64,000 nt of DNA from Psilocybe cubensis (lineage: Eukaryota): assembly GCA_017499595.2 (NCBI GenBank), contig CM039002.1, forward strand, positions 3,162,001 to 3,226,000, read 5' to 3'. A program made the position numbers and the translations under genes. Of this stretch, positions 4,049-48,773 are shown piece after piece; position 1 is the first letter of the stretch, and every line of letters begins with the position of its first letter. A model generated the notes under the pieces. That model searched no databases and was not told the DNA's origin. It saw only the letters and a list, made by a program, of their open reading frames with translations.

Positions 4049-4071
4049 AGACTTTCAATTAATGTGGATGA

Positions 4072-6462: not shown

Positions 6463-6533
6463 ATCTCAGTTGTATTCCACCTTCTAATACCAAGATTTCT
6501 TTGTGGTCCTATTGTAAGCCTATAAAGCTCTGA

Positions 6534-30996: not shown

Positions 30997-31003
30997 CTCC
31001 CCC

Positions 31004-34000
31004 TCAAACCGTGCTGAGTCCAAGGGCGGTAGCGAAATGTTTGGCCTTCACGCTAGGAAGCGCCTTGGTGAGAATGTCAGCCGTCATGTCATTTGTGGGG
31101 CAGTAGATCAACTTGATCGTGCCCTTCTCTATGACGTAGCGGATAAAATGGTAGCGAATATCGATATGTTTTGTGCGTGCATGATAGTGTCCGTCTTGTG
31201 CGAGTGCAATGGCCGATTTGCTGTCAGAAAATAAAATGGTTGGACCGTCGAGAGGTCCGAAAAGTTGAGTAATGAGTTCACGAAGCCAAATGGCTTCCTT
31301 CGCAGCGTGAGTTTGTGCGACATATTCCGCCTCGGTGGTTGACAGTGTAACGAGCTCTTGTTTCTTCGATGACCAGCTAACGGCTCCCCCGTCAACCATG
31401 AAAACATACCCGGAAATTGCACGCCTGTGCTCCTGGGATGCTCCGTCAGCATCAACGAACCCTTCCACTCCTCGCTTCTCGCCGCCGTACGTCAACTGCA
31501 ATGAGCGAGTGCCCAATAAATAGCGAAAGATTCGCTTCACGGCCTCCCAATGAGCCCAACCTGGGTTCTCGGAGAATTGTGCCACTGTGGACACTGCAAA
31601 TGCGATATCAGGGCGAGTGCCCATCGCTGCATACATCAGGGATCCAACCACCTCACGGTACGGAATTTGCTGCATCTTGATGATGTCTGCGATCTTCGTG
31701 GGGGATTGCGATTTTGAGAGCGTAACTGTGTGATCCATAGGGAAAGACGACGGTTTCAAGTCGTTAAAATTGAATCGCGCAATGATAGAGTCGATGTATG
31801 CGTCCTGGGATAGGGAAATGGTGTGGTTGACGAAATCTCGAGTGATCTTGATCCCCAAGAGCCAGTTCACAGCGCCTAAGTCGGTGAGCTTGTAGATACG
31901 ATTCATTCGCTTCTTGAATTCGTTAATCTGCTTCCTAGAGCTCCCAACAAGCAGGCAATCGTCGACGTGTACCGCAAGGATAATGATATCGGAGCCAATC
32001 TTCTTTACGAAGACTCCATGGTCTGCATCCGTTCTTACGAACCCCAAATCAGCGAGAGCTTTACAAAGTGCGTCGTACCAGTTTTTAGCGCCCTGTTTCA
32101 AGCCGTATAACGTCTTGTTTAAGCGCCAAACCCAGTCACGACTGTTGCGGACGGCGAACTCGGGTGGTTGTTCAAGAAATACCTTCTCGTTTGGACCCAA
32201 TTTGCTGTTAAGGTACGCTGAATCAAAGTCAATGATATCTGCAATCCAGTCGTTCCGCGCAGCAAGAGCAAGAAGGAGTCGAAAAGATGCGAAACGAGCA
32301 ACAGGTGCATACGTCTCATAATAATCTACGCCATGAATTTGAGTAAAACCTTTAGCGACTAGACGTGCCTTGTATTTTTCGATTTCGCCGGCTGCATTCT
32401 TCTTGATACGCAAAACCCATCGACATTTGGTGACGTTGGCATCCTTGGGTCGCTGTACAAGCTCGTAAGTGCCGTTTCGCTTCAACGAATCGAGCTCCTC
32501 CTTGATTGCGATCTCCCATTTAGGCCAGTCTGCACGCTTTCTTGCCTCCTCAAATGTAGGTGTTAAACCTTCTGCTCCCTCCATAACCGCTGCCATTGCA
32601 TACTCCGCCGCCTCGACCAATTCCCAAGCATCCTCCTCGCCATCCGCAACTCCACCCGTCTCCGAAGGCTCTGGCGCTTCTTGTATGCCTACAGGCAGTA
32701 CACCATCGCTGCGTCTTGCGCTGAGCACTCCCACACCACTTCTCAATCGTTCCACATACGAGGAAGCTTTGCGAATGCGTAAGCTTCGTCGTGGACCTTC
32801 TGGCTCGGGTTCTTCATTCTGGAATCGATTTTCAGTATGATCCGAAGGACCTCTGGGCTCTGGCTTGTCCTCGTCATCCTCGTCGACTTCCTCGACCTTG
32901 GGGCGTTGAGAATCGTTGGAAGCAAGTGGTTTGTCGGGCGGAGTCCACGCGACAAATGGTTTACGCTCCCCCTCGAGTGGTGCAGCCTCGACGAATATTT
33001 CTTCATCAAAATTGAACTTAACGTTTCGTTTGACAGTAATTGAATGCTTCTCGGTCCAATATATGCGATGGGCAAAGCTCTCATCGTCAAAACCAACCCA
33101 GCGGCCGATTTTCGATCGCGCTGCAAGTTTATTGTTGTCGTCGTCGTAAACTCGCACTCTGCATCCCCAGGGGTGTAAATTTGCAAGGTTTGGCTTCTTG
33201 CCATGAAATATTTCGAAGGGGGTCGTGTTTCCAAGACTGCGCGTCCAGGAACAGTTCTTGAGATGCACAGAGTGGCGGGCTGCTTCAGCCCACAAAAAAT
33301 CGGGCAGTCCGCTCTCATGAAGCATGGCACGGATTTTAGCAATAATGGTGCGGTTTAGGCGCTCCGAAACGCCATTATACTCGGGTGTATCGTGGGTTGT
33401 GAGGTGCCGTTCGGTTCCAGCGAGTGCAAGATGGGCAGTAAACGCATCGTTGAGGTATTCGCCTCCACGATCCGTACGAAGCGATTTGATTTGGATATCC
33501 TTTTGCGTTTTCAGCCATGCCTCGTATGACCGATACGCATCGAACGCCTCGCTCTTTTTGCGCAAAAAATAGAGCTGAGAATAGCGGCTGTAATCGTCCG
33601 TGAAGCTAATGTAGTACTTCTTGCGATTAATCGTTTTGACTGGCGCTGGACCCCACAGATCCGAATGAATCTCGTCGCCAACAGCCTTGGTGCGTTCTCG
33701 TTCGCGTTCGCGTCGGATAGCTCTACGCTCGCCTTTCGCCCACTCGCAGGACTCGCAAATTGTTGAGACACTTTCTGGGTCTAATAGAACACCAGTGACG
33801 AGTCCCTTATCCACCAAACGCTTCGCTCGCTCGTGCGAAACATGTCCCAGTCGACGATGAAGTTCATCAAGTGAGATTACCTCCTCCACCTTCGCGGCGG
33901 TCGCGGTCTCAACCTCTGGCTCAACTGAGCATGGCGTAAAGACCCGATACAGTCCTCCCTTTACAGACACCCTTCCAATCGGTCGACGATGGCGATCGTA

Positions 34001-35776
34001 AATCTTGCAAAATTCACCGTGAAAAATCAAGGTTGATCCGGCAAGAGCAATACGACTGATGGATACGAGAGTGACGCGCATCGACGGCGCATAGAGGACG
34101 TCCTTCAAGAGGACCCGAGACTCTTGCTCACCATTGGGAATAGTGATCCAAATGTCTCCCTTGCCAGTCGCCGTGAAAGTTCGGTTATCAGCGGCGGAAA
34201 TGGGCTTCTCTGGAGTATCGACGAAGTTGATAAAACGGTGTCGAAGACCAGACATGTGTCGGGTAGCTCCCGAATCATAAAGCTCCACATCTATTGGAGT
34301 GGTCAGCTCCTCATGTGTCTTGCTTGTAAACGCTGCGTCTTCCTGAAGAGCGTTCGCTTGGACAAAGATAGGATTCAACGATGGCGGGGGAATAATAAAC
34401 TCGTCGTCATCAGACTCAGAGCTCAAGTCATCATCCGAAAAATTGTCGTCGGAGTCAGATACTGAGTCAAGCGTGGGGATATCACCGTCAGAGTCGTCAG
34501 ACGATTCAGAAACGCTTTGGAGACCTGGCATTTCGTCGCTGCTATCGTCCAATACGGTAGACGCTTTGGTGTCGCTTACGGGAACAGCTTCATTGAATAA
34601 TTCCTGAATAAAATCGGAATCGAAGTCGTTGAAGGAGGAGGGTGTGTCTGAGGTCTCGGAATACGAATCGTCATCAAAAGCATTCGCCATCCAAGCCTCA
34701 TCCGAGTCAGAATCAGCATTGGCAGCTCCAGCCGTGTGTTTAGCGCTCGAAGAAGCGCCCGTCAATGAATTGTCCTTGCCCTTGCTCTCCCCATTCTCCT
34801 TCGCTTTCCCCTTCCCCTTGCCTTTCCCCTTGCCCTTTCCAGGGCGTTGACCTTCTCTGCCGCCTCCCTTCGCCCAGCACTCCGATTTATAGTGACCGCG
34901 CTTCTTGCAATTGAAGCATTCGACGTTGTCCCGACGCGAGCCTCCTTTTTGACCTCTCTCTGAGTCGTTGGAGTAAAAGGCAACGTTCTCGCTGTCCTTC
35001 TTGCCGCTACTGCCCTTCGCACGAAGGAGCCGGCGCTCGTACTCGTCGGTGACGCTTAAAATAAAGTTTTCGGGTGATGGCGGTGGTGGGGGGTCTTCCG
35101 TATTCGCATACTGCGCAGCAATAACTGTTGTGTATGATGCATCGATGACAGAGACAAAAGAGTCGTAGGAAGCGGGTAGGGAGCCCATGAGGATAGTGTA
35201 GAATTCGAGGTCATCGAGGGGATAGCCCATGGACGAGAGATCTTCGCGCATGAGGCGCATCTTCGCAAAATGCGCTCGCACGTCGCCCTTATCTCCACAC
35301 CGCTCCTCTTGCAATCGTCGACGAAGGTCAATTGAAACCATGCGAGATTTGTTCTGGAAATTCGCTCCCAACGCCGCCCACATCATCTCTGCAGTAGGTA
35401 GCATGCGAATCTTCAAGAAGAGGCTGTCCGGGATCGTGCCAGCGATCTGCTGCTTCACCACGGCCTCCTCCTGCTTCCACACCTTCAACTTCTTGTAGTA
35501 CTCCTCAAGCGCAGCTGTTTGTTCCACTGTCGGGGCCGGCGGTGGCTGGGTCGTTGCAGGAGTGGTAGACGAGCCTGTGGCAGCGGGAGCCGGTGCAGAG
35601 GACGAGGAGAACGATGGAGCAACTGGCATAGGTGCTGTGCCGTCGATGTGATCTCCCAGTCCGCGTGCATCGATGGAAATCAAGAAACGGTCTCGATAGA
35701 CCACCCAATTAGCGCCCGTGGCCTCGAGCTTGGGAATGCGCAAGAAATCATCGCCTAGCTTCGTTGTAGAGAGCAT
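31004..35776 (-). CDS. gag-pol: Copia Gag-Pol polyprotein, 1590 aa, uninterrupted
   Basis: Zn knuckle CFNCKKRGHYKSEC, protease LYDSGAT, HRRLGH..CESC, integrase (HSDLWG, RTDRGGEY, NGVSER), RT (KARLVAKGF, VHVDD), RNase H (ADILTK); IN precedes RT = copia order. Confidence 0.97.
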   Translation of the reverse strand: MLSTTKLGDDFLRIPKLEATGANWVVYRDRFLISIDARGLGDHIDGTAPMPVAPSFSSSSAPAPAATGSSTTPATTQPPPAPTVEQTAALEEYYKKLKVWKQEEAVVKQQIAGTIPDSLFLKIRMLPTAEMMWAALGANFQNKSRMVSIDLRRRLQEERCGDKGDVRAHFAKMRLMREDLSSMGYPLDDLEFYTILMGSLPASYDSFVSVIDASYTTVIAAQYANTEDPPPPPSPENFILSVTDEYERRLLRAKGSSGKKDSENVAFYSNDSERGQKGGSRRDNVECFNCKKRGHYKSECWAKGGGREGQRPGKGKGKGKGKGKAKENGESKGKDNSLTGASSSAKHTAGAANADSDSDEAWMANAFDDDSYSETSDTPSSFNDFDSDFIQELFNEAVPVSDTKASTVLDDSSDEMPGLQSVSESSDDSDGDIPTLDSVSDSDDNFSDDDLSSESDDDEFIIPPPSLNPIFVQANALQEDAAFTSKTHEELTTPIDVELYDSGATRHMSGLRHRFINFVDTPEKPISAADNRTFTATGKGDIWITIPNGEQESRVLLKDVLYAPSMRVTLVSISRIALAGSTLIFHGEFCKIYDRHRRPIGRVSVKGGLYRVFTPCSVEPEVETATAAKVEEVISLDELHRRLGHVSHERAKRLVDKGLVTGVLLDPESVSTICESCEWAKGERRAIRRERERERTKAVGDEIHSDLWGPAPVKTINRKKYYISFTDDYSRYSQLYFLRKKSEAFDAYRSYEAWLKTQKDIQIKSLRTDRGGEYLNDAFTAHLALAGTERHLTTHDTPEYNGVSERLNRTIIAKIRAMLHESGLPDFLWAEAARHSVHLKNCSWTRSLGNTTPFEIFHGKKPNLANLHPWGCRVRVYDDDNNKLAARSKIGRWVGFDDESFAHRIYWTEKHSITVKRNVKFNFDEEIFVEAAPLEGERKPFVAWTPPDKPLASNDSQRPKVEEVDEDDEDKPEPRGPSDHTENRFQNEEPEPEGPRRSLRIRKASSYVERLRSGVGVLSARRSDGVLPVGIQEAPEPSETGGVADGEEDAWELVEAAEYAMAAVMEGAEGLTPTFEEARKRADWPKWEIAIKEELDSLKRNGTYELVQRPKDANVTKCRWVLRIKKNAAGEIEKYKARLVAKGFTQIHGVDYYETYAPVARFASFRLLLALAARNDWIADIIDFDSAYLNSKLGPNEKVFLEQPPEFAVRNSRDWVWRLNKTLYGLKQGAKNWYDALCKALADLGFVRTDADHGVFVKKIGSDIIILAVHVDDCLLVGSSRKQINEFKKRMNRIYKLTDLGAVNWLLGIKITRDFVNHTISLSQDAYIDSIIARFNFNDLKPSSFPMDHTVTLSKSQSPTKIADIIKMQQIPYREVVGSLMYAAMGTRPDIAFAVSTVAQFSENPGWAHWEAVKRIFRYLLGTRSLQLTYGGEKRGVEGFVDADGASQEHRRAISGYVFMVDGGAVSWSSKKQELVTLSTTEAEYVAQTHAAKEAIWLRELITQLFGPLDGPTILFSDSKSAIALAQDGHYHARTKHIDIRYHFIRYVIEKGTIKLIYCPTNDMTADILTKALPSVKAKHFATALGLSTV

Positions 35777-35818
35777 TGTGAAGTTGGTGTGAAGGGAAAT
35801 GAGTCTACTCGTTGATTA

Positions 35819-36267
35819 TGTCAGGGCAACACTATAATTAGTGTGACAAGGCCACCAACAAAGATCAAGCAAGGAAGAGAGAGAGAGAGCAGAGGGAGAG
35901 TAAGAGAGCAAAGAGAGAATAAGAGAATAAGAGAGACTCAATGATTCTAAGAGATCACACCAATGATAGTGGATATCCTAAGAGATTGAAGCTGAAGCTA
36001 CAGCTACCTACAAGTCCAGTATTTATACTCTACAGCTATTCTAGAATATTCCCTACATTACATCATAAAGGAAGGTTAAAGAATAAAAGTGACATCATAT
36101 AGAAAAAGGATGAGTAAGACTAGGAATCATATAGAATTTACTAGAAAGAAGTGGAGCAAAAAGGCTGTGATGAAAGAAATAAACTATCTAATCAGATAAT
36201 TGATAAGATAATGAAAGGATAAGATAATTCTGTGAAGATAAAGAGGGAAACTGGAGAAACCCTGACA
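35819..36267 (-). repeat. Gypsy 3' LTR
   Basis: Same length as 41725-42173 and no difference found by eye. Confidence 0.95.
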
Positions 36268-39200
36268 TCACCCCCTCTCTAAGGCACATTTTCCACAATG
36301 TGCACATGGATGGGTTAGTTTAGAGGGTTTAAGAAGAGGAGGAGGTTCAGTAAAGTTAATAATAGGAGTGAAAGAAAGTCTATCAAAGGTCACAGCAGAA
36401 ATCCTTCTAGGTGCTGAAGGATGTTTGGCATGGAAGTCCTTGATAGCCTTAGAAGCATTTTTCAAATGCTCTGCAGGCTCCCAAGTGCATTCTTCATTAG
36501 GATAGTTCTTCCACTTGACCAAATATTGAAGTTTGTTTCTAAAAAGTCTGCTGTCCTTGATAAATTCAACTTCCCACTCAGGATTTTCTCCTTGAATGAC
36601 AGGTGGTGGTCTAGAAGGAGGCTTTCTTCCTACAATATCTGGGTGATAAGGTAGAAGTTTAACCACATTGAACACTGGATGGATTTTCATGGTAGATGGC
36701 AGCTTAAGCTCATAGGCATTAGGGCTAATAACTTTGGTAATTTTGTAAGGCCCATATCTTTTATCATCCAATTTCTTGGAGGGCCTATCAGTTTTGAGGT
36801 CTTTGCCATCCAACCATACCAAATCCCCAACTTTGTACTGAGTTGGAGTACCTCTGTGTCTATTATAGAATTTAGCCATATCATCAGCAGCTTTTCTAAG
36901 TGCAGACTCTGCTTCTTTCCTGGCTTCTTCCATATTTTTCACAAAGGTATCCACAGTGTCCATTTTACTATCTCTAAGGGGTTCAGTGCCCATTCTGGGA
37001 TGTCTGCCATTATTGAGCATGAATGGTGTCTGCCTGGTTGAAGCCTGAACTCTATTGTTATAAGAGAATTCAGCTAGAGCTAACCATTCAACCCAATCAT
37101 CTTGTCTATGGTTTATAAAGAGTCTAAGATACTGCTCAATTTCTTGGTTAACTCTTTCAGTCTGACCATCAGTTTGGGGATGGTAGGCTGTAGATGAGGC
37201 TGTCTGGATACCAAGTATTGAGTTGAGTTCTTTCATAAACCTTGAGACAAACTGTGGACCTCTATCACATAGAATTTTAATGGGTAAGCCATGGTGTTTC
37301 CAGACATAATCTCTGTATAGTCTGGCTGTCCCTTCAGAAGTAACTTCATCTGTAGTAGGGATAATGTGGATCATTTTACTAAGTCTATCCACAACCACCA
37401 TAATGGCATTATACCCTTGACATTCTGGTAACCCCATAATAAAGTCCACAGAGATGCATTGCCAGACATCAGAGGGAATCTCAGTAGGAATTAAAAGGCC
37501 AAGAGGTTTGGCTGGAAAGGTTTTGGTTCTGTTGCATCTATCACAACCTCTGGTATAGGCTGCAATAAAATGTGACATTCCTGGCCACCAATAATTCCTA
37601 GAGACTAGCTCAATTGTCTTCCATTTTCCTGGATGTCCAGCAATGAAGGCATCATGGTGCAGTTCCACAATCTTTCTTCTAAGATCTTTGTCCTTGGGAA
37701 CATACACCTTCCCCCTGTAGAGAATAAGGCCTTGTTCTTCTGACCATTCCTGTCCTTCAATCTTCTTGGTAGAAGATTTCTTGAGCTCCTGAACTGCCTT
37801 GACCACCTTTTCATCCATCTCCTTAGCTTCTCTAATCTTCTTAAGAAGATCATTTTCTGCACTAGTAATGGTAGCATGACCCTGCTTGAGAGCCTGGATT
37901 TTAAAGTAGGAAGGTTTGAGGAGAACTACATTTTGGTTATCATTCTCTCCCTTTTTATGATCTGGTCTCCTAGACAAAGCATCTGGCTTAAGAGATCTTT
38001 TACCAGGCCTATGATGAAGAGTAAAATCAAATCTGGACAGGAAGAGTGACCATCTGGCTTGCCTTCTGCTGAGCTTTTGGGCAACCATAAAGTACTCTAA
38101 GTTTTTGTGGTCTGTCCAAATCTCAAAGGAATGTTGGGTTCCTTCAAGATAATGTCTCCATTCATCTAGTGCTCTGATAATAGCCAGCATCTCTTTGTCA
38201 TGGATCTCATAATTCCTTTCTACTTCAGATAGACTCTTAGACATAAAGGCTACAGGATGCCATTTCCCATCTGATCCTTCCTGAGATAAAACAGCCCCAG
38301 TAGCATAATCTGAACTGTCTGCTTCAACTTTATATGGCTTGTTATCATCAGGGAAAATCAAGACAGGTGAAGAAGTGACTTTCTTCTTTAACTGGTCAAA
38401 GGCTTCCTGCTGTCTAAGACTCCATCTCCAGACTGTTCCTTTCTTTGTCAATTCATGAAGGGGCTTAGCAATGTCTGCAAAATCCTTTATGAACCTTCTA
38501 TAAAAATTAACAAATCCCAAGAATGATTGGACATCCTTGACATTTTCAGGTTCAGGCCATTTAGAAACTCCCTCTACCTTGACAGGATCCATCTCAATCC
38601 TGCCTTGTGAAATGATTAGTCCAAGATATTCAATCTTTTCCTTTTCAAATTCACATTTCTCTGCTTTAAGGTAGAGTTTGTTCTGTTCTAGGATTTGCAG
38701 AACTTGCTTGACTACCTCTCTATGATGATCAAGAGTCTCAGTGAAAATTAAAATGTCATCCATGTAGACAATGACAACATTTCCATCAATGAGCTCAATA
38801 AAGATATCATTCATCATAGTTTGAAAGGTAGCAGGACTATTGGTTAAACCAAAGAACATGACCAATGGTTCAAACAGCCCTCTATTGGTTCTAAAGGCTG
38901 CTTTCCATTCATCTCCCTTTTTGATTCTGACATTGTTAAATCCCCACCTAACATCAAGTTTGGTGAAGTATTTGGCTTTGCTGAGTTTGGTGATAATGTC
39001 AGAAATCAATGGAAGGGGGTAGGAGTTCTTGATGGTCATTTCATTCAGTTTCCTATAGTCCTGGACAAGCCTAAGAGATCCATCCTTCTTCTTGACAAAG
39101 AATACAGGGGAGGCCATAGGTGACTTGGAGGGTCTAATCCTGCCAGACTTCAGATTTTCCTCTAAAAAGGCATCAAGTTCCTTTTGTTCATTGGGAGAGA

Positions 39201-40137
39201 GAGAATAAATCTTGGATCTATAAGGTTCAGAACCAGGTTTCAGCTCAATAGCATGATCCCAAGGCTTCCTGTCTGGTAGCCTATCAAAAGATTCCTTTGA
39301 AAAAACACCTTTAAACTGGTGATAGTGCTTAGGGACAGTTTCTTCAAAGGTTTTCTTAGGAGAATCAGCTTGCTGATGAGACTCTTCTGCTAATCTTTGA
39401 GACATAGTAGAAGTAGCATTAATAGACTGCTTCTGAGGATGAAGGTATGAGATGAAAATTCTGTCCTCAGGCTCAATCTCAGAATCAGAAGAATCTTCAA
39501 TAGAATCATCTTCTTCTTCATCAAATTGAGGGAGTTTCCTCCTTTTGACTGCAGCTATTCTCTGCCTCTTTCTTCTGGCTCTTTTGGCTTCCATTTGGCA
39601 GTCAGAGGGACATCTAATAAACTGAACATCCCCTGTCTTCCAATCAACATCTGGATTATGGTGCCAAAGCCAAGTATGTCCAATGATAGCAGATTTGTCT
39701 CCCAAGTCACAAACAGCAAAGGTGGCCCTTTCTGTATGGTTCTTGTGTACCATAATTAAGTCTACTTCCTCATGGATAGAGCCACTCTTGTTGAGAGTAC
39801 CATCAACATTATAGACTGGAATGGCTCTAGGAAGTTTCCTTGTGTTGAGATTATGATACTTCACAAAACCAGAATGCAGAAAGAGGCCAGTAGCTCCAGA
39901 ATCAAGCAAAGCATCAACAGATAACCTTTTCTCTGTGTCCATTGTCTTTAAGATGACAGACAAATGGGTAGAGGTTTTAGGATTATGGTTGAGGATGTAG
40001 ATCTTTTCAGGGAAGGTAGAAAGAGAGGAAGAAGAAGACATGATTTCTGCACCAGAATCTGAAGACTGAGGATCAAGTCTGTCAATTTCATTTTCTAGTA
40101 CATTAAATCTATTCCATTGGGACATGTCTTTCACCAA
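36268..40137 (-). CDS. pol: Gypsy Pol: protease-RT-RNase H-integrase-chromodomain
   Basis: LLDSGAT, LRLVQDYRKLN, YMDDILI, EADSSDYA, WTDHKNL, H..GHPG..C..C, SVDFI, DRGPQF, DGQTER, GPY, chromodomain EWEVEFIKDSR..QYLVKWKNYPNEECTWEP. Confidence 0.97.
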   Translation of the reverse strand: MVKDMSQWNRFNVLENEIDRLDPQSSDSGAEIMSSSSSLSTFPEKIYILNHNPKTSTHLSVILKTMDTEKRLSVDALLDSGATGLFLHSGFVKYHNLNTRKLPRAIPVYNVDGTLNKSGSIHEEVDLIMVHKNHTERATFAVCDLGDKSAIIGHTWLWHHNPDVDWKTGDVQFIRCPSDCQMEAKRARRKRQRIAAVKRRKLPQFDEEEDDSIEDSSDSEIEPEDRIFISYLHPQKQSINATSTMSQRLAEESHQQADSPKKTFEETVPKHYHQFKGVFSKESFDRLPDRKPWDHAIELKPGSEPYRSKIYSLSPNEQKELDAFLEENLKSGRIRPSKSPMASPVFFVKKKDGSLRLVQDYRKLNEMTIKNSYPLPLISDIITKLSKAKYFTKLDVRWGFNNVRIKKGDEWKAAFRTNRGLFEPLVMFFGLTNSPATFQTMMNDIFIELIDGNVVIVYMDDILIFTETLDHHREVVKQVLQILEQNKLYLKAEKCEFEKEKIEYLGLIISQGRIEMDPVKVEGVSKWPEPENVKDVQSFLGFVNFYRRFIKDFADIAKPLHELTKKGTVWRWSLRQQEAFDQLKKKVTSSPVLIFPDDNKPYKVEADSSDYATGAVLSQEGSDGKWHPVAFMSKSLSEVERNYEIHDKEMLAIIRALDEWRHYLEGTQHSFEIWTDHKNLEYFMVAQKLSRRQARWSLFLSRFDFTLHHRPGKRSLKPDALSRRPDHKKGENDNQNVVLLKPSYFKIQALKQGHATITSAENDLLKKIREAKEMDEKVVKAVQELKKSSTKKIEGQEWSEEQGLILYRGKVYVPKDKDLRRKIVELHHDAFIAGHPGKWKTIELVSRNYWWPGMSHFIAAYTRGCDRCNRTKTFPAKPLGLLIPTEIPSDVWQCISVDFIMGLPECQGYNAIMVVVDRLSKMIHIIPTTDEVTSEGTARLYRDYVWKHHGLPIKILCDRGPQFVSRFMKELNSILGIQTASSTAYHPQTDGQTERVNQEIEQYLRLFINHRQDDWVEWLALAEFSYNNRVQASTRQTPFMLNNGRHPRMGTEPLRDSKMDTVDTFVKNMEEARKEAESALRKAADDMAKFYNRHRGTPTQYKVGDLVWLDGKDLKTDRPSKKLDDKRYGPYKITKVISPNAYELKLPSTMKIHPVFNVVKLLPYHPDIVGRKPPSRPPPVIQGENPEWEVEFIKDSRLFRNKLQYLVKWKNYPNEECTWEPAEHLKNASKAIKDFHAKHPSAPRRISAVTFDRLSFTPIINFTEPPPLLKPSKLTHPCAHCGKCALERG

Positions 40138-40145
40138 TGGTGCTT

Positions 40146-41258
40146 CTAAAAATTTTTCTTTTCCTCATCTTTCTGCTCCTTGCCTTCCAAGATTAATTTC
40201 CCAAAGTAGTCAGCCAGTTCTTCATGGGTCATAGCATTGATGTTAACTGATGATCTGCAGTTTACAGCCTTATGACCAGGCTTTCTGCACTTGAAGCAAA
40301 CAATTGGCCTAACTGACTTCCATCCAGAGTCAACCTCCATGGGAACTACATCTGGTTGCTTTGCCTGAGCACCAAAGGTCCTTAAGCTGCTGTTGGAAAA
40401 GACTGGAGGATTTGGAGTAGGCTTAGGAACAGCCTTGGGAGTTGGGGCTTTAAGAAAGGGAGAAGATGAGGAGGAGGAAAGAGACTTGGTAAAGGCCTCA
40501 CTCTGTCTCCACTGCCTATCTAGCCTAGTACTCCATTTAATCCATCCATCCAAGGTTTTGGGCATATCAGGAACATAGTAGACTGCATTCCTGAGATTTT
40601 CATTGAGCCCAGCCTTGAATTGGTCTACCAAAGCAGCATCATTATACCCAGTATCTGAGATCAGAGCCCTGAAGCTAGCAACATACTCATCAGCAGTCTG
40701 TCTGCCTTGCTTGAGCATGTGCATTTTATGCTTAGCTGTATTGGAGGGGTCTGGATCTGCAAACACTTCCCTAAATTCATAAACAAAGTCAGCCCAAAGA
40801 CCTTCTTGGGACTGAGCATTGTCTATTACTTTAGTCTTCTCATATGCCCACTTCCCAGCAGTACCTCCTTTCATATGAGATAGAGCACAAATAACTTTCT
40901 GAAAGTCATCTGTAATCCCTTTTCCATAGAAATATAATTTGAGCTGACTGAGGAAGTTTTCTGCCTTCTCCATAGAACCATCAAATGGATCTGGAGGTGA
41001 GACTTTAATGACAGAGTGTAAACAGGAAGGGGCAACATGAGGGGTAGGGAAAGAGTGAATATTTAGAGCAGCAGGTGGTGGTGGTGGTGGTGATGATGAT
41101 GGTGACTGACTGACTGGTTGCTGAGGGTGTGGTGGAGTGGATGATGACTGCTGCTGCTGTCTAAGAAAATTCAACTCTTGGGTAAGGAGCTGGACCTGAT
41201 GCATGAGCTCTTCCACAGAAGGAGTGGTGGGAGGCAATTGGGAGGGGTCCATGTCCAT
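40146..41258 (-). CDS. gag: Gypsy Gag
   Basis: PDPFDG, ALSHMKG..AGKW, LKQGRQTADEYVASF, QFKAGL, PMEVD, Zn knuckle CFKCRKPGHKAVNC. Confidence 0.95.
   Translation of the reverse strand: MDMDPSQLPPTTPSVEELMHQVQLLTQELNFLRQQQQSSSTPPHPQQPVSQSPSSSPPPPPPAALNIHSFPTPHVAPSCLHSVIKVSPPDPFDGSMEKAENFLSQLKLYFYGKGITDDFQKVICALSHMKGGTAGKWAYEKTKVIDNAQSQEGLWADFVYEFREVFADPDPSNTAKHKMHMLKQGRQTADEYVASFRALISDTGYNDAALVDQFKAGLNENLRNAVYYVPDMPKTLDGWIKWSTRLDRQWRQSEAFTKSLSSSSSSPFLKAPTPKAVPKPTPNPPVFSNSSLRTFGAQAKQPDVVPMEVDSGWKSVRPIVCFKCRKPGHKAVNCRSSVNINAMTHEELADYFGKLILEGKEQKDEEKKNF
40149..40155 (-). promoter_or_regulatory. -1 ribosomal frameshift heptamer A AAU UUU joining gag to pol
   Basis: gag ends AAA AAT TTT TAG; the -1 frame reads TTA GAA GCA CCA TTG GTG into the pol ORF. 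Confidence 0.8.
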
Positions 41259-41711
41259 GGGTAGGGGTAGGTAGGCTCTCTGATGTGTGTGTGGGAGAAG
41301 CTATCTACTAAAAGTGCCCTTGAAACTATACTAAGTATTCTAAAAAAAATATCTATCTACTGGATACCCAGTTGTCACACCACTCAGGGCTCTAAACCTA
41401 GGATCACAGGGTTACTGGATATTTCCTAGACCACCAAAAACAGAACACTAGTAGGACTGTGTCTGCCCCAACAGTTGGTATCCCTATCTACTAAGTTCAC
41501 ACACAGCACACAACAGAGAGTAGGAAAGATGATGAGCCAAAGGTTGAAGATTGGTGGAGATGTAGAGGTTGGTAAGAAGATTGGTGAAGAGGTTGATGAA
41601 GAGGTTGGTGGGTTGAAAGTGGGGGAAGAAGGTTGAGGTGATGATGTTGAAGAGGTTGAAGAGGTTGAAGAGTTTGGTGTTGAAAGAGAGATGGTGGAGT
41701 TGTCTTGAGAG

Positions 41712-41722
41712 AGCTTCAATCT
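41712..41722 (-). promoter_or_regulatory. Self-priming primer-binding site (Tf1-type)
   Basis: Element-strand AGATTGAAGCT, 2 nt after the 5' LTR, is the exact complement of AGCTTCAATCT (41899-41889), which lies ~27 nt downstream of TATAAATA (41933-41926). Confidence 0.8.
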
Positions 41723-41724
41723 TC

Positions 41725-42173
41725 TGTCAGGGCAACACTATAATTAGTGTGACAAGGCCACCAACAAAGATCAAGCAAGGAAGAGAGAGAGAGAGCAGAG
41801 GGAGAGTAAGAGAGCAAAGAGAGAATAAGAGAATAAGAGAGACTCAATGATTCTAAGAGATCACACCAATGATAGTGGATATCCTAAGAGATTGAAGCTG
41901 AAGCTACAGCTACCTACAAGTCCAGTATTTATACTCTACAGCTATTCTAGAATATTCCCTACATTACATCATAAAGGAAGGTTAAAGAATAAAAGTGACA
42001 TCATATAGAAAAAGGATGAGTAAGACTAGGAATCATATAGAATTTACTAGAAAGAAGTGGAGCAAAAAGGCTGTGATGAAAGAAATAAACTATCTAATCA
42101 GATAATTGATAAGATAATGAAAGGATAAGATAATTCTGTGAAGATAAAGAGGGAAACTGGAGAAACCCTGACA
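41725..42173 (-). repeat. Gypsy 5' LTR
   Basis: Direct repeat of 35819-36267; contains a TATA box and a CT-rich tract on the element strand. Confidence 0.95.
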
Positions 42174-42191
42174 GATTATAGGCTGAGGTTG

Positions 42192-42203
42192 GGGCCCATA
42201 ACC
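42192..42203 (-). promoter_or_regulatory. Copia PBS, half-tRNA-iMet (hemivirus) type
   Basis: GGTTATGGGCCC directly abuts the 5' LTR, the motif known from Drosophila copia-type priming by a cleaved initiator tRNA. Confidence 0.8.
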
Positions 42204-42580
42204 TATTGAACAAATATAATGGCTCAGTCAATGTAGAATAGACTGATATTCGTGTATAGTACCTATTGAACAAATATAATGGCTACACGAAGTCAATATA
42301 CGAAGGGAAACAGTAAATACGATGGTCAACTCACCTCAGTCAATGTAGAATAGACTGAGGGGAGTTGAGACGAAATTGTTCTGGTATATGTGATACGAAA
42401 ATGGCTGGGCAAATGCCCAAGCCATGCGGACCTACTCGGTGTACGTATTGTCCATGCGTGCACCTGTCTACGTACGGTCTAGACTAAAACTGAGGTCATC
42501 ACGGAGAAATAAGACAACAAGAAAATATAATCAGTCAAGAAAAGGGCGTGCATTACGAAGGCACGGTTAGAAATTCAACA
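42204..42580 (-). repeat. Copia 5' LTR
   Basis: Direct repeat of 30620-30996. Confidence 0.95.
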
Positions 42581-42720
42581 GTGTCTTCCAATTAACCCTC
42601 TTTTATCTTTTGCTTTGTCTACTTCTTTTGGATACCTTATTCTTTACAGTATAAATACAGCTATGTAGTAGCTAGAAAACAAGCATCGAATACAGAGTCT
42701 TTTAACCTGTCTATTCGACC

Positions 42721-43028
42721 CAAGGGGCCCTCCCCGGAGCTTACCGAGAAATCAACCCTACCCTTGAGGTCAAGGGAGTGGCTGTGTTCAAGCTGGTATG
42801 GCAGAGCCTGGCAAGTCACAAGCAAAATTGCCATTGTACATAATTGTATTGTGGTTCTTGTAGACCTATGTGAAGATGTTGTGAGGCGACAAAGCACGCA
42901 CTTTCTGTCGTCAATATTTGAAGTATAATTATTATCCAATTGCTCATTGGATTGTTGCTCAACACAGCCACTCCCTTGACCTCAAGGGTAGGGTTGATTT
43001 CTCGGTAAGCTCCGGGGAGGGCCCCTTG
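42721..43028. mobile_element. 308-bp MITE, hAT-like
   Basis: Perfect 68-bp TIRs (42721-42788 / 42961-43028, CAAGGGGCCC...); 8-bp TSD ATTCGACC (42713-42720, 43029-43036). Confidence 0.9.
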
Positions 43029-43040
43029 ATTCGACCTCTA

Positions 43041-45179
43041 CACAGCCGGACACTGGGCGAGGTCACGATCAAGTTACCGTGACTTCGGTCTACCGCAAGT
43101 TAGATTGCGTCAGTCACAAAAAAGAGCCGCACATGTCATTTGCAAAAATATTAATCTAAGTTTAACACATGATGATATGAGCTCAACTGATATGCACATG
43201 AGTTAAACCTATGTTGCTATACGTCAGACTCATAATTTTTTGTTCTATAGTTCCTTATCTGGAAGCAGAAATTTGGGGACTGCTCCCTCGTACCCAGCCC
43301 TGCTGCAGGGTTCAGTGACTCATATCCTCTCATAACCCTCCAATTTTTGTAGCATAGAAAGTTGTGTAGGATTAAAACATATGTTGTACATAATACATGG
43401 AGATATGGATAGTATAATACATGCACGCAGGACATACCAATGATGAGCAAACCCAACCAACCAGCATCCACCACTCCCTCGATGGCCCACCCAAACCAAC
43501 CAGCACGGACAGAGATAAATTCTCTGTATTGAAGCAGGGTCAGTGGTGTATAACGGACTATAAACGAGACGCACCTATTATCCAAATACTAAAACTCTGA
43601 TCCAAACATCTTCAAATTGAAAGCATGACCTGCCGCAGACAAATTGTAGACATTAGAAAGTATCAAAAAAATACAAACAGTCACATACCTTCTAATAAAC
43701 ATGACAGCTTTCAGCGAGCATTGAGAGATGAGGAACAAGACAGTGGTAGAAGCAAAAAGACCACATGTTGGTCATATAAATTGTAACTAATTACCCGTGC
43801 TGCTCAACGCACTTCCACACAACGGGAGGTCAGATCAATCTGACACAAGGGCACATACACCACCATGGTGCACAATAAAAAGTCATCCCATCAGAGGGAC
43901 ATAGGCTGCTGGAGAGACCTGAAAAGCGGTGGTGACTTGGAATGAGGAGACGGCGGTAGTGGTGGTTGACAACAGAGCTGTTGCAATAATTTCCGATCCT
44001 TGGCAAGAGGACGGATGGCATCATCCTTACTTTTCCGGTCTGGTATTTCGCGGTCAGATGGCATGTCTATAAACGCGGTCGTGCAGTGTCGAGAAACTTG
44101 GGTTTGACGCAGTCGGGTGAGAACCTAGAGTTCGACGAGGTTTGGAAGCTGTGTCTGACTCATTTTACATTGACTTGGATATTTCCACAGAATTTGATTA
44201 GATTCTAGCTATGATTTTCAAATGCGAGATATTTTGCATCCAACCACTGCAGGCTCCAATACATGTTTGATGTCAAACATCAACAATCAAACAGATATTA
44301 TGTAGGATATAGATGTTTGATGTCACGCACATCGGCAAAAGTGACCAGACCCCCAAATGCCTTTGATGCCTTTTACGGTAGGTCAATGTTTCATGTGACA
44401 TGATAATTTCCCACGAAACATTTGAACAAAATTTGGAGGCGCAGCAAACATTTGGAGGGCATTTTGACACTCTACAAACATTTGTGAACCTCAAAATTTA
44501 TTAACAATGATTTTGTATACTTAAAGTAAATTTTTAATCATTTATCTGCCATAAAACATTACGAAAAACATTGAACAACAATAGAAACAAAGCACAAAAG
44601 CTTGAATTCAAATTTACATGCATCCAAATGTTTACATGGATTGAAATACATGCCAAATGATTACAGGGATTGCAATTCACACAAAACAATTTTGCAAGGA
44701 GAAATTTTACTGGCCATAGCATTATTACATAACGTCAAGTCGAGTCAATTTCAGCAAAACCATGCCAGTCCATGTACAAATTAAATCGGAGATTGAACCT
44801 CAGTTTTCTGTATAATAACTTGAGATATATTCATGACACGGCCCCCAGTCCCTTTCTTTCCACTTTTATTTCCACCGCTCTGATGACTGCACTTGCTAGT
44901 GCAAAACATGCTTGCACACAGAGCAGAGCTTGAAGGTAAAGCACTGCTTTCTTGTCTCATTGGGCAACTCCAACTAACCAAGTTCTATTTCCTTTACCAA
45001 TACCTTGAATGACAATACAGCCATTTTTGTTAACTTAAATGTGAGTATATGCGCATATATGTGCATTTGACACACATATATTTCATATTTTGCTTACTAT
45101 GACTCAATCATTCTAGCTCTTCTTTAATCAAATTATGTGAGTTACGGTAACCTTGTCACATGCTTGCCCGTTGGCTGTG
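43041..45179. mobile_element. Non-autonomous TIR element with CACAGCC...GGCTGTG ends flanked by TA
   Basis: Imperfect TIRs sharing CACAGCC, GGGC.AG and GTTACCGT.ACT blocks; TA on both sides; no long ORF. Confidence 0.55.
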
Positions 45180-45562
45180 TAGTCACAAATCATATCGTTT
45201 CTGTATAGCCTCTGTTGTATTATAATTCTATTCAATGAAATTTCTCATTTGATTACTATTTATATTGTGTGATTGCCTGAAGTGGCTGCTAGGAATAAAA
45301 TATGAGCATCATTGCACGAACCAATTAAAATTTTGGGTCTCTCAAATGTTGTCCAAATGTTTTCGGGACTCTCAAAGGTTACCCAAATGATTGGGTTATA
45401 TTTAGAGCTACCTAAAACATTTGGTTTAAATCAAGGATTCGAAGTCTTTTAGACTTCCGAGTCTCTAATTAGTCAATATAAAAGGCCATTTGGGCCTTGG
45501 GGCCTTTGGACGCCTCCAAATGCCTTGGCAAGGCATTTGGGGATCTTGTCCTTTTTGCCAAT

Positions 45563-46124
45563 GCACATATTGTGTTTGACAACAAACATGCTTCAAACAT
45601 AAATTGTGTTTGAACTCTGTGTGACATCAAACACCAAATATGTTTGAGCACTGTTTGTTAAAAAATATTAGCCTGACATAATTCCTGTTTGAATAGCTGT
45701 ATAATAAGGTTCTGTAAGAGATCAACCATAAAATCCATATCTTATCTAACATGAATATCAAAAATATTTTATGTAAGCATTCAACCAGAATATTTGTCCG
45801 AAATCAAACAGATTGCCAAACAGATATGTATGAACCAATCAGATTCAAGAAAAAATGGATGTTTGATATTGATAATTGTTTGATTTTGGACAAATATTCT
45901 GGTTGAATGCTTACATAAAATATTTTTGATATTCATGTTAGATAAGATATGGATTTTATGGTTGATCTCTTACAGAACCTTATCATACAGCTATTCAAAC
46001 AGGAATTATGTCAGGCTAATATTTTTTAACAAACAGTGCTCAAACATATTTGGTGTTTGATGTCACACAGAATTCAAACACAATTTATGTTTGAAGCATG
46101 TTTGTTGTCAAACACAATATGTGC
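45563..46124. repeat. Long near-perfect inverted repeat (248-bp arms, 66-bp spacer)
   Basis: 45563-45810 is the reverse complement of 45877-46124 with about 3 mismatches. Confidence 0.92.
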
Positions 46125-46373
46125 GTGACATCAAACATATATTAGAGCCCGCAGTGAACCGGAGTCAGACGCAAATTGAAACCCAGTTCTGACTGCAGTT
46201 TTACAAACTCCGTCCTGCCGCAAGCTTAGGTCCGGACGTGTAAGCTTCCTTTCAAAACCTTGTCCGTGTGCCGCTACGGAACTGCTGTTACTCTCCGAGT
46301 CACAGTAGTCACTGGCGTCACAACACGTGACATGGGTTATATAATCATTATATCCTCTGCTCACCGCCGTGTA

Positions 46374-48773
46374 CACGGGGGGCAAAGTCCAGCACGGTAG
46401 AATTTCAACCGTGCCCGTTGCGGTTGAGATTCGAGTGAACAAAGGCGGGCCAGATTTCAGTTGGAGATTTAAATATTTAATCAGCGTAAGACTTGTTATT
46501 CTCAACATGACTTCACCTCATATTTTGCTGTTCAAAAGAGTCATGGTGAATATTATGCAAAACTCCAAAGATTAACAGATAAATAGGGAGCTAATACATA
46601 TACTTAACACTGCTGGCACTGATACATATTTGATAGAACATCAGCAAAAGTGCTCGGATCCCCAAATGCCTTGACAAGGCATTTGGAGGCGTCCAAAGGC
46701 CCCAATGCCCGAAAGGCATTGTGCGGTTCGTAACGAGAGACTCCGAAGACTGAAAGGCTTCGAATTATTTATTCCAAGCAAATGATTTAGGTAGTCCTAA
46801 ATATAGCCAAATCATTTGGTTAAAATTTGAGAGTGTCCGTAACATTTAGGAAACATTTGGGAGTCCCAAAAACATTTGGCAAACATTTGCCAGTGTTTAA
46901 ATGTTTTACACAGTTCACATGGTTCATTATTTAGTGGATCCCTCAGATTATCATAGCAAGTAAAAAGAACTTGTTGCATTAAGAAAACTTATACTACAAC
47001 ATGACTCCAAAAGGTACAGAGAAGCGAGAAAGTGGTTAAATAACAAAATGATGCTGAGACAATGTCATCAATAGATGGTACCCATGAATTATAGGAGCTA
47101 CTTTGGTTGCATGATGTAAGCAAGGTGTGTGTGCAGAAGTGCGCATATACTCACCTAAAAGTTTGGGAACTAGTGAATGATTATATACCAAGCCGGATAT
47201 CCAGTAGATCTAAGGCAGAAGGAGAACGGTCTACGGAAAGGCAGATACATGGTCAGTTGAGGATGATCTAATCAGAAAGGAAGTGGCAGAATTACCTGTG
47301 AGTTAGATTCAGCTATGATATACGAAGACTTAGAGTTGAAAAGTCCAAGCCCAAGTCCCACCAAGCGTCGCCGGAGTAGTGAACATGAGAGTATGTGGAA
47401 AGAAAGAAACGGGGGTTGAAAGAGATTATTATGCACAAACAAACAAATATTTGATCTCCGATTCACTCCGATTCACGCTGATCGCATTGTGACTTCGTTG
47501 ACAGTCGAGAAATTGTACAGACCGGGTGACCAACTGTACAGAATTCTAATTAGAACTAATGTGGCTGTATAGCCAGTAAATTTTGGTGTGGATGAATTAT
47601 TTCATCAGCATTTGAAAGTCCTGTAAACATTTCTCATAACCGAAGTGTAAAACCAAATGTTTTGTGACCTCTTTTAATTTTGTTAAATGATTCCTTCAAG
47701 GTTGCACAGTGTACAAATTTTTTTTGTAAATTGTAGTTACTAGAAATTATTTGGTGCTTGTTTTGTGCTTCAAAAATGTTGGTGGGGCCTCCAAATGACC
47801 ACCAAATGATTTGAGTGTTCCCAAATGTTGCCCAAATGTTTTGCGTGACATTACTGTATCACGTAAAACATTGGCATGCCTTATAAGGCTCCCAAGGCAT
47901 TTGGGGGTCTGGTCACTTTTGCTGATGAAAAATATGTATCGGTAATTATGTTTCCTGTTGGTTTTTGATGTATTTTTCTCGTATATAGAGTCCGGGGTTA
48001 CCCAATTAGGGAAGCCCAAAGCCTATATTCCAATAAAATACATCAAAAAAATGTAGGAAACATAATTACTGGGTCTTATTTTCTTTGAAAATATGTATGA
48101 GCGCCAGTGGTGTAAGTTTGTCTTATGCTTCCTATTAGTATGTAGATACCTTAATTTGGAGGCCTATTCAGCAATAACTACCTTAACTACACATACTGCT
48201 CTGCAACAACTATCTGTGAGCCGAAAGCTTGATCATATCCTGTGAAACTATATGGTATTAGTTAGGCAGCTTGTGTCATAGTTTAAATGTATTTTGAACT
48301 TTATTATGCTTTGAATTGGCACCGACAATTATGCTGAAGAATATGATAAAATAAAATCAATTGAGGATCAATTGCTCTAGCAGTATTTTTGGCAGTAAAA
48401 TAATTATATAGAGTGTCTTTAGAATATTCTCAAGGTGTACTACAGTTGGAATTGAGGTTACTGAGATACATCCACTCCTAATTACTTTTAAATGCAGAAG
48501 CAATAATATGCCACTGCTAATTGGAACACTATCACCAATCCATTGGCACTGTGGGCTTTAAAACTCAAATCAAACTCTTAGAGCATATTTATACTAAAAT
48601 TTACATCAATAACATTAAGGTGTACATTGTTGCTACATCTAGAAAATATAATACACACAATTTCGTTGGCAAAGTGTGCTTGTGGAATGACATCAGCTTG
48701 ATTACGTGGTCCCAAAATCTCAACCGTGACGGGCACGGTTGAATTTTGACCGTGCTGGACTTTGCCTCCCGTG
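46374..48773. mobile_element. 2.4-kb non-autonomous TIR element (CACGG...CCGTG)
   Basis: ~58-bp imperfect TIRs (CACGGG.GGCAAAGTCCAGCACGGT...CAACCGTGCCCGT..CGGTTGAGATT); the empty site CCGCCGTGTATGCTGC is present in the paralogous segment at ~57346-57361. Confidence 0.88.

Follow-up and report, generated by a model that had tools for sequence, protein, structure and literature searches.

A complete Ty3/gypsy chromovirus without CpG, inserted in a CpG-rich copia element of Psilocybe

The retrotransposon Tf1 primes its own reverse transcription: its primer-binding site (PBS) pairs not with a tRNA but with the first ~11 nt of the element's transcript. Vertebrate RNA viruses and retroviruses suppress CpG and so avoid ZAP, a suppression that is strong, not absolute. 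In Basidiomycota, methylation is described as CpG-specific and focused on transposable elements (TEs) in passages of a review (PMC13297926) and of a Pleurotus study (PMC6191308), and basidiomycete transposons are described as CpG-depleted by methylation-linked CpG-to-TpG decay (Clutterbuck 2017, cited in PMC11451569; Horns et al. 2012, PMC3318451; Amselem et al. 2015, PMC4352252). Where these sources take up CpG depletion of fungal TEs, they treat it as hypermutation or inactivation of copies (PMC3318451, PMC4352252, PMC11451569). Microbotryum TE lineages, as summarised in PMC3318451 from Hood et al. 2005, carry few TpCpG targets where C-to-T is non-synonymous, and for agaricomycetes the portion of that paper concerned reports no clear RIP-like process (Horns et al. 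2012, PMC3318451). Here, we report a young, intact chromovirus that holds no CpG at all, in a 64-kb window of Psilocybe cubensis DNA (the whole stretch analysed, 64,000 nt). Complete depletion in an intact, young, multi-copy TE differs from the published depletion of inactivated copies, and we found no earlier description of such an element in the literature.

Architecture of the element and its insertion site

Positions 35819-42173 are, on the minus strand, a complete Ty3/gypsy chromovirus of 6,355 bp, recently inserted into a CpG-rich Ty1/copia element. The features are as follows.

30619-42580, minus strand: CpG-rich Ty1/copia element hosting the insertion; its LTRs (30619-30996 and 42203-42580) are 377/378 identical
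35814-35818, unstranded: left copy of the 5-bp target-site duplication (TSD), GATTA; flank ...TCGTTGATTA, then, across the junction, TGTCAGGG; GATTA recurs at 42174-42178
35819-36267, minus strand: 3′ LTR, 449 bp, TG..CA termini, no CpG, 449/449 identical to 41725-42173
36268-40164, minus strand: pol, an open frame of 1,298 codons stop to stop, −1 relative to gag; the stop codon (36270-36268) abuts the LTR
36268-40164, minus strand: pol content by Pfam and motifs, namely protease, RT, RNase H, integrase (zinc finger, core, SH3) and chromodomain
36271-36280, minus strand: polypurine-tract-like run AGAGAGGGGG, which overlaps the end of pol and lies immediately upstream of the 3′ LTR; putative function, from position
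40146-40164, minus strand: gag–pol overlap, in which the run AAAAATTTTT immediately precedes the gag stop; a candidate −1 frameshift site
40146-41258, minus strand: gag coding region, which starts at codon 15 of the open frame 41300-40146, the first ATG, and runs to the stop; Ty3 capsid-like with a zinc knuckle
41301-41724, minus strand: 5′ leader with short tandem repeats of 9-, 12- and 24-nt period, 0 CpG against 17.7 expected
41712-41722, minus strand: PBS-like 11 nt, beginning 2 nt past the 5′ LTR (element positions 452-462), 11/11 complementary to LTR positions 275-285
41725-42173, minus strand: 5′ LTR, 449 bp, no CpG, 449/449 identical to 35819-36267
41889-41899, minus strand: 11-nt stretch of the 5′ LTR (LTR 275-285) that pairs with the PBS-like site; a TATAAA box (41928-41933) lies 34 nt upstream
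42174-42178, unstranded: right TSD copy, GATTA, the same 5 bp as the left copy

The gag frame spans 384 codons stop to stop; its product matches PF19259 and PF03732 above cut-off, and zf-CCHC marginally (20.7 bits against a curated cut-off of 20.8). Pol matches RVT_1 (residues 357-518), RT_RNaseH (606-712), Integrase_H2C2 (825-882) and rve (902-996), as well as SH3_Tf2-1 and Chromo. Its protease–RT–RNase H–integrase order, with integrase after RT, is that of Ty3/gypsy elements, and the C-terminal chromodomain of the integrase (PF00385, residues 1197-1246, E 2.5e-15) marks it as a chromovirus. The protease motif D88-S-G (D88-G90) and the integrase residues D907, D967 and E1003 are all invariant. 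In the order LTR–gag–PR–RT–RNaseH–IN–chromodomain, the 5-bp TSD, the −1 relation of gag and pol and the Tf2-type SH3, the element resembles the Tf1/sushi chromoviruses (Metaviridae).

CpG content and codon use

The 6,355 bp contain no CG, whereas base composition (GC 0.408) predicts 263.6; the Poisson estimate for such an absence is ~1e-114. The original prediction, which put the expectation at 200+ and had CG returning in the flanking copia, identical LTRs and an intact TSD, is thus borne out on each of these points. The CpG-free run extends over 35811-42250, between CGs at 35810 and 42251 (a gap of 6,441), and the second-longest CG gap within the window is 341. CG alone is missing among the 16 dinucleotides: on the plus strand of the element GC occurs 215 times (observed/expected, o/e, 0.82), with TG at o/e 1.15 and CA at 1.21, and no 3-mer or 4-mer free of CG is strongly under-represented. 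By region, observed over expected counts are 0/13.3 in each LTR, 0/17.7 in the leader, 0/59.3 in gag and 0/158.1 in pol. CpG is absent from every class of position (CGN arginine codons, NCG codons, codon boundaries and non-coding DNA), and with none on either strand the substrate of a CG methyltransferase is absent.

Both coding frames are open. All 92 arginine codons are AGA or AGG (0/92 CGN), no NCG codon is used, and codon boundaries hold 0 CpG against ~90 expected. Pol keeps 325/325 residues that are invariant in 17 intact relatives, and AGR stands at all 26 arginine positions invariant in 18 intact proteins. Because C-to-T cannot turn CGN into AGR, these codons were not made by deamination.

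The CpG-free element is not an assembly artefact. We compared the window with Illumina raw reads of another strain (X18): among the 40 differences listed, beyond which 1,476 more exist, none is a fixed difference inside the element, and contigs from two further runs cover pieces of it with a ~99% match.

CpG-directed mutation in the host copia

The copia element, whose open frame runs from 31004 to 35815 (1,603 codons), is the opposite case. Its portion 31004-35776, the comparison proposed with the original prediction, holds 370 CpG (o/e 1.16); 94 of 107 arginine codons are CGN and boundary CpG stands at 171/171. The copia is itself nested in an older repeat of ~7 copies. The joint 30614 to 42581 was seen in 264 reads, and depth in the copia interior is ~36 against 30 in the unique flank. 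A host gene in the flank shares 97% identity with a Psilocybe cubensis protein, and the genes neighbouring the element are CpG-normal.

The sole mismatch between the two copia LTRs is CpG to TpG. Among the fixed differences listed between X18 and the window, all 21 in the copia are transitions and 16 of these are CpG transitions, whereas the unique flank has 2 CpG transitions among 13 differences (Fisher p=0.001). These observations support the conclusion that TEs of this host undergo CpG-directed transitions.

Relatives are either CpG-normal or broken

Relatives were compared at the DNA level over 94 loci of fungal chromoviruses; the element's own clade (66-88% amino acid identity) is known from proteins alone. 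Across the 94 loci, pol CpG o/e ranges from 0.01 to 1.29. All 12 relatives without a stop in the aligned pol lie at 0.65-1.29, and intact relatives mostly favour CGN for arginine. Every locus below 0.65 carries 2-21 stops. At the 26 conserved arginine positions the loci provide 2,342 cells, comprising 888 CGN, 600 AGR, 723 Q/W/H/C/stop (the products of deamination), 38 K and 93 others. Among DNA-readable relatives, all of which keep some CpG, intact copies are CpG-normal and CpG-poor copies are broken; the element, by contrast, has none. The CpG-depleted basidiomycete TEs reflect the same pressure, with CpG transitions concentrated in repeats, as seen here in the relatives (including the shattered L061 and L083) and in the host copia; the element differs from them in being wholly depleted yet intact, young and multi-copy.

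CpG o/e at codon positions 1-2/2-3/3-1 forms a graded series, from 1.36/0.88/0.80 in intact CGN-type relatives through 0.27/0.45/0.33 in a separate AGR-dominant clade to 0/0/0 in the element. Protein partners hint that the nearest relatives may use AGR too: K+G against C+H+Q+W partners stand at 19:4, dropping to 58:90 in distant tiers, a trend confounded by divergence level. The closest protein relatives come from Psilocybe cf. subviscida, which has several full-length copies at 88% amino acid identity.

Copy number and distribution

In raw reads of a second strain, family depth is ~1,499 against 30.4, or ~49 copies. Of the 77,946 reads on the family, 37,643 are at least 99% alike, leaving each 151-nt read room for no more than 1 difference, so that the copies behind about half of the reads hold at most 1 CpG per 151 nt; none of the common variants listed among family reads creates a CpG. 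At the element edge (42173/42174) reads have loose ends and consensus agreement falls to 0.37-0.39, which indicates many different flanks. Near-identical DNA, sharing at least half of the sampled words, is present in 11 runs that bear five organism labels between them. With open frames, conserved residues, near-identical copies and varied flanks, the family appears to be autonomous and currently active.

Origin of the CpG-free state

Identical LTRs, 92/92 AGR codons, 325/325 invariant residues and a family of ~49 copies together show that the CpG-free state is not decay in place; as had been proposed, it predates the insertion. The explanation we consider probable is that the locus records one recent insertion of an active chromovirus family whose replicating lineage was purged of CpG under methylation-linked mutation and selection for function. 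Basidiomycetes would methylate transposon CpG through DNMT1-RFD and DNMT5, and deamination of 5-methylcytosine (5mC) to T would cost every genomic copy its CpGs, in this family typically converting CGN arginine codons to Q, W, H, C or stop. Only copies with working proteins would found new ones. Over many rounds, variants with harmless replacements (NNC-G to NNT-G across a codon boundary, NCG to NCH, and CGR to AGR by rare C-to-A transversion) would outlast the others until no CpG was left.

Such an element would offer CG-specific methyltransferases nothing and would be immune to inactivation by CpG transitions. Protection from CpG-transition decay is at least as well supported as escape from methylation, and the purge need not reflect selection for stealth. 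The chromodomain probably steers the element into TE-rich heterochromatin; the insertion lies in a copia within an older repeat. The paucity of mutational targets recalls that of Microbotryum TEs, where it is a counter-adaptation to a mutating defence; in those Pucciniomycotina, however, it is partial and position-specific, whereas here, in an agaricomycete, removal is total in coding and non-coding DNA. We offer more tentatively, and with doubt, the further idea that a lineage fully invisible to CG-only methylation and immune to its mutagenic arm may thereby have become the dominant young Psilocybe family, while its CpG-rich neighbours stay single-copy and erode.

Rather unlikely, though the strongest competitor, is the view that the purge is a passive by-product of methylation-driven mutation and purifying selection, with H3K9 methylation or small RNAs silencing the element as they do other TEs and with a copy number unrelated to CpG. 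Dead relatives do become nearly CpG-empty: L083 retains 2 CpG of ~365 expected, and L061, with o/e ~0.1, has no open reading frame above 182 aa, so mutation pressure alone can strip nearly all CpG and selection for stealth is not required. The near-identical LTRs of the copia show that CpG-rich TEs were also recently active in this host, and the Pleurotus study maps abundant small RNAs to Gypsy elements in its relevant part (PMC6191308). Against this, 92/92 AGR codons need transversions and require hardened copies to survive better than others, itself a lineage-level advantage, and the same reads give ~49 copies of the element's family against ~1 of the CpG-rich copia interior, a single comparison.

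By analogy with the viruses that avoid ZAP, a host factor might instead sense CpG in the transcript or reverse-transcription intermediate; we regard this as very improbable. The element, like those viruses, is a genetic parasite that recodes synonymously and drops a host-recognised dinucleotide, and all its transcribed parts lack CpG, synonymous and boundary positions included. Yet U3, the stretch of LTR preceding the putative start site, lacks CpG as well, and decay in the relatives and the copia bears the DNA-level signature of CpG to TpG/CpA. The host kingdom differs too, the sensor here being presumably DNA methylation or deamination, not an RNA-binding protein, and we know of no fungal factor that senses CpG in RNA or cDNA.

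Equally poor odds attach to a recent horizontal acquisition from some donor whose own CpG is extremely suppressed; composition would then be uninformative about this host. Near-identical DNA under five organism labels and the normal CpG of the adjoining copia and genes would fit such a transfer, but the labels may be those of close relatives, the 88%-identity relatives in P. cf. subviscida and the P. cubensis-like flanking gene make the clade look resident in the genus, and CpG-directed TE mutation is visible in the host itself. Decay in place, or sequencing or polishing error at methylated sites, has nothing in its favour beyond the bare absence of CpG and is refuted as far as sequence can tell: independent deamination would not leave two LTRs 449/449 identical, it would create stops and could not yield AGR from CGN, all 325 invariant residues are kept, reads of another strain show no fixed difference inside the element among those listed, and contigs of two more runs match parts of it at ~99%.

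Significance

A CpG-free element inside an eroding, CpG-rich copia is a natural matched pair at one locus, through which one may ask what CG methylation contributes to TE control in mushrooms, whether a TE can evolve beyond its reach, and whether its mutagenic side, 5mC deamination, is the stronger selective agent. If the more tentative idea of a lineage invisible to CG-only methylation is true, the element would be a clean natural example of synonymous recoding by which a transposon has left the recognition space of its host's defence, and mushroom CG methylation would be a defence that can be evaded. For annotators, low CpG o/e alone is an unsafe proxy for TE age or death.

Priming site and leader repeats

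The 11-nt PBS-like site would pair with the 5′ end of the presumed transcript, an arrangement reminiscent of Tf1. From its place behind the TATAAA box, 41889-41899 is the probable transcript start, and the PBS/LTR complementarity may reflect Tf1-like self-priming. The leader repeats differ in length between genomic copies; several variants show no CG in the letters listed, and a 27-nt insertion behind 41542 is carried by 444 of 1,327 reads.

Absence of CpG from an intact element

The Ty3/gypsy chromovirus at window 35819–42173 (hereafter the gypsy element) contains no CG in 6,355 bp, against 263.6 expected from its base composition (GC 0.408). CG alone is missing among its dinucleotides (observed/expected (o/e) ratios are 0.82 for GC, 1.15 for TG and 1.21 for CA), and no other avoided motif was found, none of the CG-free 3- or 4-mers being strongly under-represented. 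The CpG-free run spans 35811–42250; elsewhere in the window, successive CpGs are never more than 341 bp apart. The whole window has a CpG o/e of 0.85, and the adjoining DNA of the Ty1/copia element that hosts the insertion holds 370 CpGs at an o/e of 1.16. The absence extends to non-coding parts, with 0 CpG against 13.3 expected in each long terminal repeat (LTR) and 0 against 17.7 in the leader. The features of the two elements are as follows.

35819–36267 and 41725–42173, minus strand: LTRs of the gypsy element, identical at 449/449 positions, starting with TG and ending with CA
Both sides of the gypsy element, in the flank sequence: 5-bp target-site duplication GATTA
41300–40146, minus strand: gag open frame, first ATG at 41258
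40164–36268, minus strand: pol open frame, in the −1 frame relative to gag
5′ of the 3′ LTR, minus strand: purine run AGAGAGGGGG
30619–30996 and 42203–42580: LTRs of the copia element, 377/378 identical, with an open 1,603-codon frame

The two coding frames are recoded throughout. Each of the 92 Arg residues in the two proteins is encoded by AGA or AGG (AGR), the codons TCG, ACG, CCG and GCG are never used, and C|G occurs at 0 of 1,682 codon junctions, where 90 would be expected from marginal frequencies. For comparison, copia uses the CpG-containing CGN codons for 94 of its 107 Arg residues and has 171 boundary CpGs against 171 expected. These counts agree at every point with the original prediction, which had described an element without CG where more than 200 were expected, CG resuming in the flanking copia, Arg encoded solely by AGA/AGG with no NCG codons, identical LTRs, an intact target-site duplication and two open frames.

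Structurally, nothing sets the gypsy element apart from other fungal chromoviruses. Pfam assigns Ty3 capsid and gag domains to gag, with a marginal CCHC knuckle, and reverse transcriptase (RT), RNase H, integrase zinc, integrase core, Tf2-type SH3 and C-terminal chromodomain to pol. The two frames overlap by 19 nt, and AAAAATTTTT lies within this overlap immediately 5′ of the gag stop. Seventeen other full-length Pol proteins share 325 invariant columns, and the gypsy element matches them at all 325. The protease D-S-G and integrase D907/D967/E1003 occupy invariant alignment columns. Starting 2 nt past the 5′ LTR, 11 nt are perfectly complementary to LTR positions 275–285, a segment 34 nt downstream of a TATAAA box; we take this to be the arrangement expected for a predicted Tf1-like self-priming. 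The insertion lies in the 5′ leader of copia, which is itself enclosed by an older repeat of about seven copies.

Copies and host

The flanking MYND-finger gene shares 97% identity with a Psilocybe cubensis protein, which places the host in Psilocybe or very near it. The stretch is present, whole or in part, in 15 entries from 7 studies. Near-identical DNA (at least half of the sampled 31-mers) occurs in 11 runs carrying five coded organism labels. Related chromovirus Pol proteins number in the thousands, and the nearest protein cluster (88% amino acid identity) has, in the annotation of Psilocybe cf. subviscida, at least six full-length members. Illumina raw reads of another strain (X18) were mapped to window 25001–45000. 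They cover the gypsy element about 1,499-fold, against about 30-fold for unique DNA and about 36-fold for the copia interior, which corresponds to about 49 copies at a likeness of at least 80%. Of the 77,946 mapped reads, 37,643 were at least 99% alike and 31,504 were 95–99% alike; because the former class allows at most one difference in 151 positions, its source copies can have no more than a minor part of the usual number of CpGs. None of the common indel variants, among the 40 listed of 1,516 X18 differences, creates a CpG; a minority of copies may carry some. Reads leaving the element at 42173/42174 agree poorly on a consensus (0.37–0.39), a pattern that insertion at many different sites would produce.

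The copies also vary among themselves. Short tandem repeats in the leader (41542–41676) differ in copy number: 444 of 1,327 reads have 27 nt inserted, and several longer forms occur. Within the LTR, one additional G is present in 1,585 of 2,158 reads behind 36244 and 1,086 of 1,508 behind 42150, so the window copy is a minority LTR variant. Contigs from a run of another coded organism (X12), 80–90% alike on window 36340–40341 at a k-mer depth of about 3,300, show that a related family is very abundant in that organism.

CpG mutation in the host

Differences between X18 and the window show that CpG-directed mutation acts in this host. Among the 40 listed of 1,516, all 21 fixed differences in the copia interior are transitions, and 16 of the 21 exchange CpG and TpG/CpA, against 2 of 13 in unique flank (Fisher p=0.001). 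In this small sample of listed differences, 13 of the 16 copia CpG transitions (31004–35815) fall at TpCpG, against a background of 34% (binomial p=1.5e-4). TpCpG is the hypermutation target described for Pucciniomycotina; for Agaricomycotina, Horns et al. (2012, PMC3318451) report no clear sign of it. The sole mismatch between the copia LTRs (30881/42465), a CpG in the 3′ LTR and a TpG in the 5′ LTR, is a CpG transition that followed insertion, in DNA adjoining the CpG-free gypsy element. Published accounts describe CpG-specific methylation of Basidiomycota transposable elements (TEs) via DNMT1-RFD and DNMT5 (PMC13297926), 26–59% methylation with repression of Pleurotus Gypsy families (PMC6191308) and, in Agaricomycotina repeats, an excess of CpG transitions ascribed to 5mC deamination (PMC3318451).

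Window 43677–49000, beside the two young elements, has the ordinary pattern of decayed TEs, with a CpG o/e of 0.37–0.79 and raised TG/CA. It is repeated, with an X18 depth of 195–325 as measured up to 45000.

Decay among relatives

The comparison with relatives used 94 listed DNA loci of 29–60% amino acid identity, of which 80 came from metagenomes, 3 from the genome collection and 11 from the viral collection; among the matches listed, metagenome relatives have 42–60% identity and genome- and viral-collection loci at most 59%. CpG o/e over aligned pol codons spans 0.01–1.29. The 12 stop-free loci among the 94 all lie at 0.65–1.29, and every listed locus below 0.65 carries 2 to 21 stops. Eighteen intact proteins share 26 invariant Arg positions; across the 94 loci, the 2,342 cells aligned with them comprise 888 CGN, 600 AGR, 723 Q/W/H/C/stop, 38 K and 93 other codons. 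The Q/W/H/C/stop codons are transition products of CGN (CAT, TGC, CAC, CAG, TGG, TGT, CAA, TGA and a few TAG/TAA), identifying CpG deamination as the main route by which family members die. No TpCpG preference was found in the decay of the metagenomic relatives, decay fractions being 0.25–0.34 in every context. At these positions most intact relatives among the listed loci favour CGN; the gypsy element has AGR at 26 of 26.

In a tree of the RT–integrase core, the gypsy element falls within a clade of Pol proteins (P0001–P0043) represented by proteins alone. A separate chromovirus clade from metagenomes (L061 and L085–L094) is AGR-dominant and CpG-reduced, with AGR at 17–20 of the 26 conserved Arg positions, a CpG o/e of 0.12–0.49 and stops in all sampled copies. 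CpG o/e at codon positions 1-2, 2-3 and 3-1 is 1.36, 0.88 and 0.80 in intact CGN-type relatives, 0.27, 0.45 and 0.33 in the AGR-dominant clade and 0, 0 and 0 in the gypsy element (expected counts 35, 53 and 68). The gypsy element is thus the endpoint of a graded series, and the intermediate clade implies that partial hardening arose at least once elsewhere. Where relatives replace Arg at the Arg columns of the gypsy element, K+G stand to C+H+Q+W as 19:4 in the nearest protein tier and as 48:30, 43:39 and 58:90 in farther tiers, a trend confounded by divergence; with that confounding, these protein sequences give a hint of AGR-only coding in the nearest relatives.

The 13.7-kb contig of L061 (1–13689) is CpG-poor and AT-rich throughout.

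Origin of the CpG-free state

The best-supported account, which we regard as probable, is that CpG was purged at the level of the replicating lineage and that its loss brings some present benefit. TE copies would be methylated at CpG and then lose CpGs through deamination, and only copies that still worked would found new ones. A site whose CpG had been removed harmlessly would never again be at risk, so such variants would build up until no CpG was left. The resulting element would be beyond marking by CG methyltransferases and beyond killing by CpG transitions; of these advantages, protection from mutational death is the one most directly backed by the data. Since mutation alone brings dead relatives close to this CpG level, selection for stealth is not required for the purge.

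The same lineage-level origin may have brought no benefit, a version we think rather unlikely. It seems improbable that CpG is sensed at the RNA level, and equally so that the element arrived horizontally from a CpG-poor donor. Decay in place or an artefact has a negligible chance of explaining the absence, as CGN cannot reach AGR by C-to-T or G-to-A changes and requires a C-to-A transversion, two independently deaminating LTRs would not stay identical, and true in-place decay looks different, with 2 CpGs against about 365 expected and 21 stops in L083 and a CpG o/e of about 0.1 with no open frame longer than 182 codons in L061. The original interpretation is supported in part. AGR at all 26 positions, identical LTRs and CpG-poor relatives riddled with stops favour its proposal that the CpG-free state was probably fixed in the replicating lineage; escape from silencing stays a candidate property of the element.

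CpG depletion of basidiomycete TEs is a known process (Horns 2012, PMC3318451; Amselem 2015, PMC4352252; Clutterbuck 2017 as cited), and Microbotryum TE lineages have been proposed to thin hypermutation targets at damaging positions (Hood 2005 via Horns 2012, PMC3318451). In the article texts searched, we found neither an intact, multi-copy TE without any CpG nor a TE or methylation analysis of Psilocybe; an earlier mention elsewhere is possible.

Further observations

The L083 record bears the title of a Lapillicoccus sp. MAG chromosome, but its composition (1–8962, GC ~0.40) is very unlike an actinobacterial chromosome. It holds a shattered RT/integrase at 29% identity with 21 stops. Despite the bacterial label, the stretch resembles DNA of a eukaryote after heavy CpG decay.

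Elsewhere in the window, a duplication (48822–50631 and 57392–59273, about 8.56 kb apart) has 96–98% identity over repeat blocks of 224–300 nt each and encodes two F-box-like open reading frames of 477 and 503 codons.
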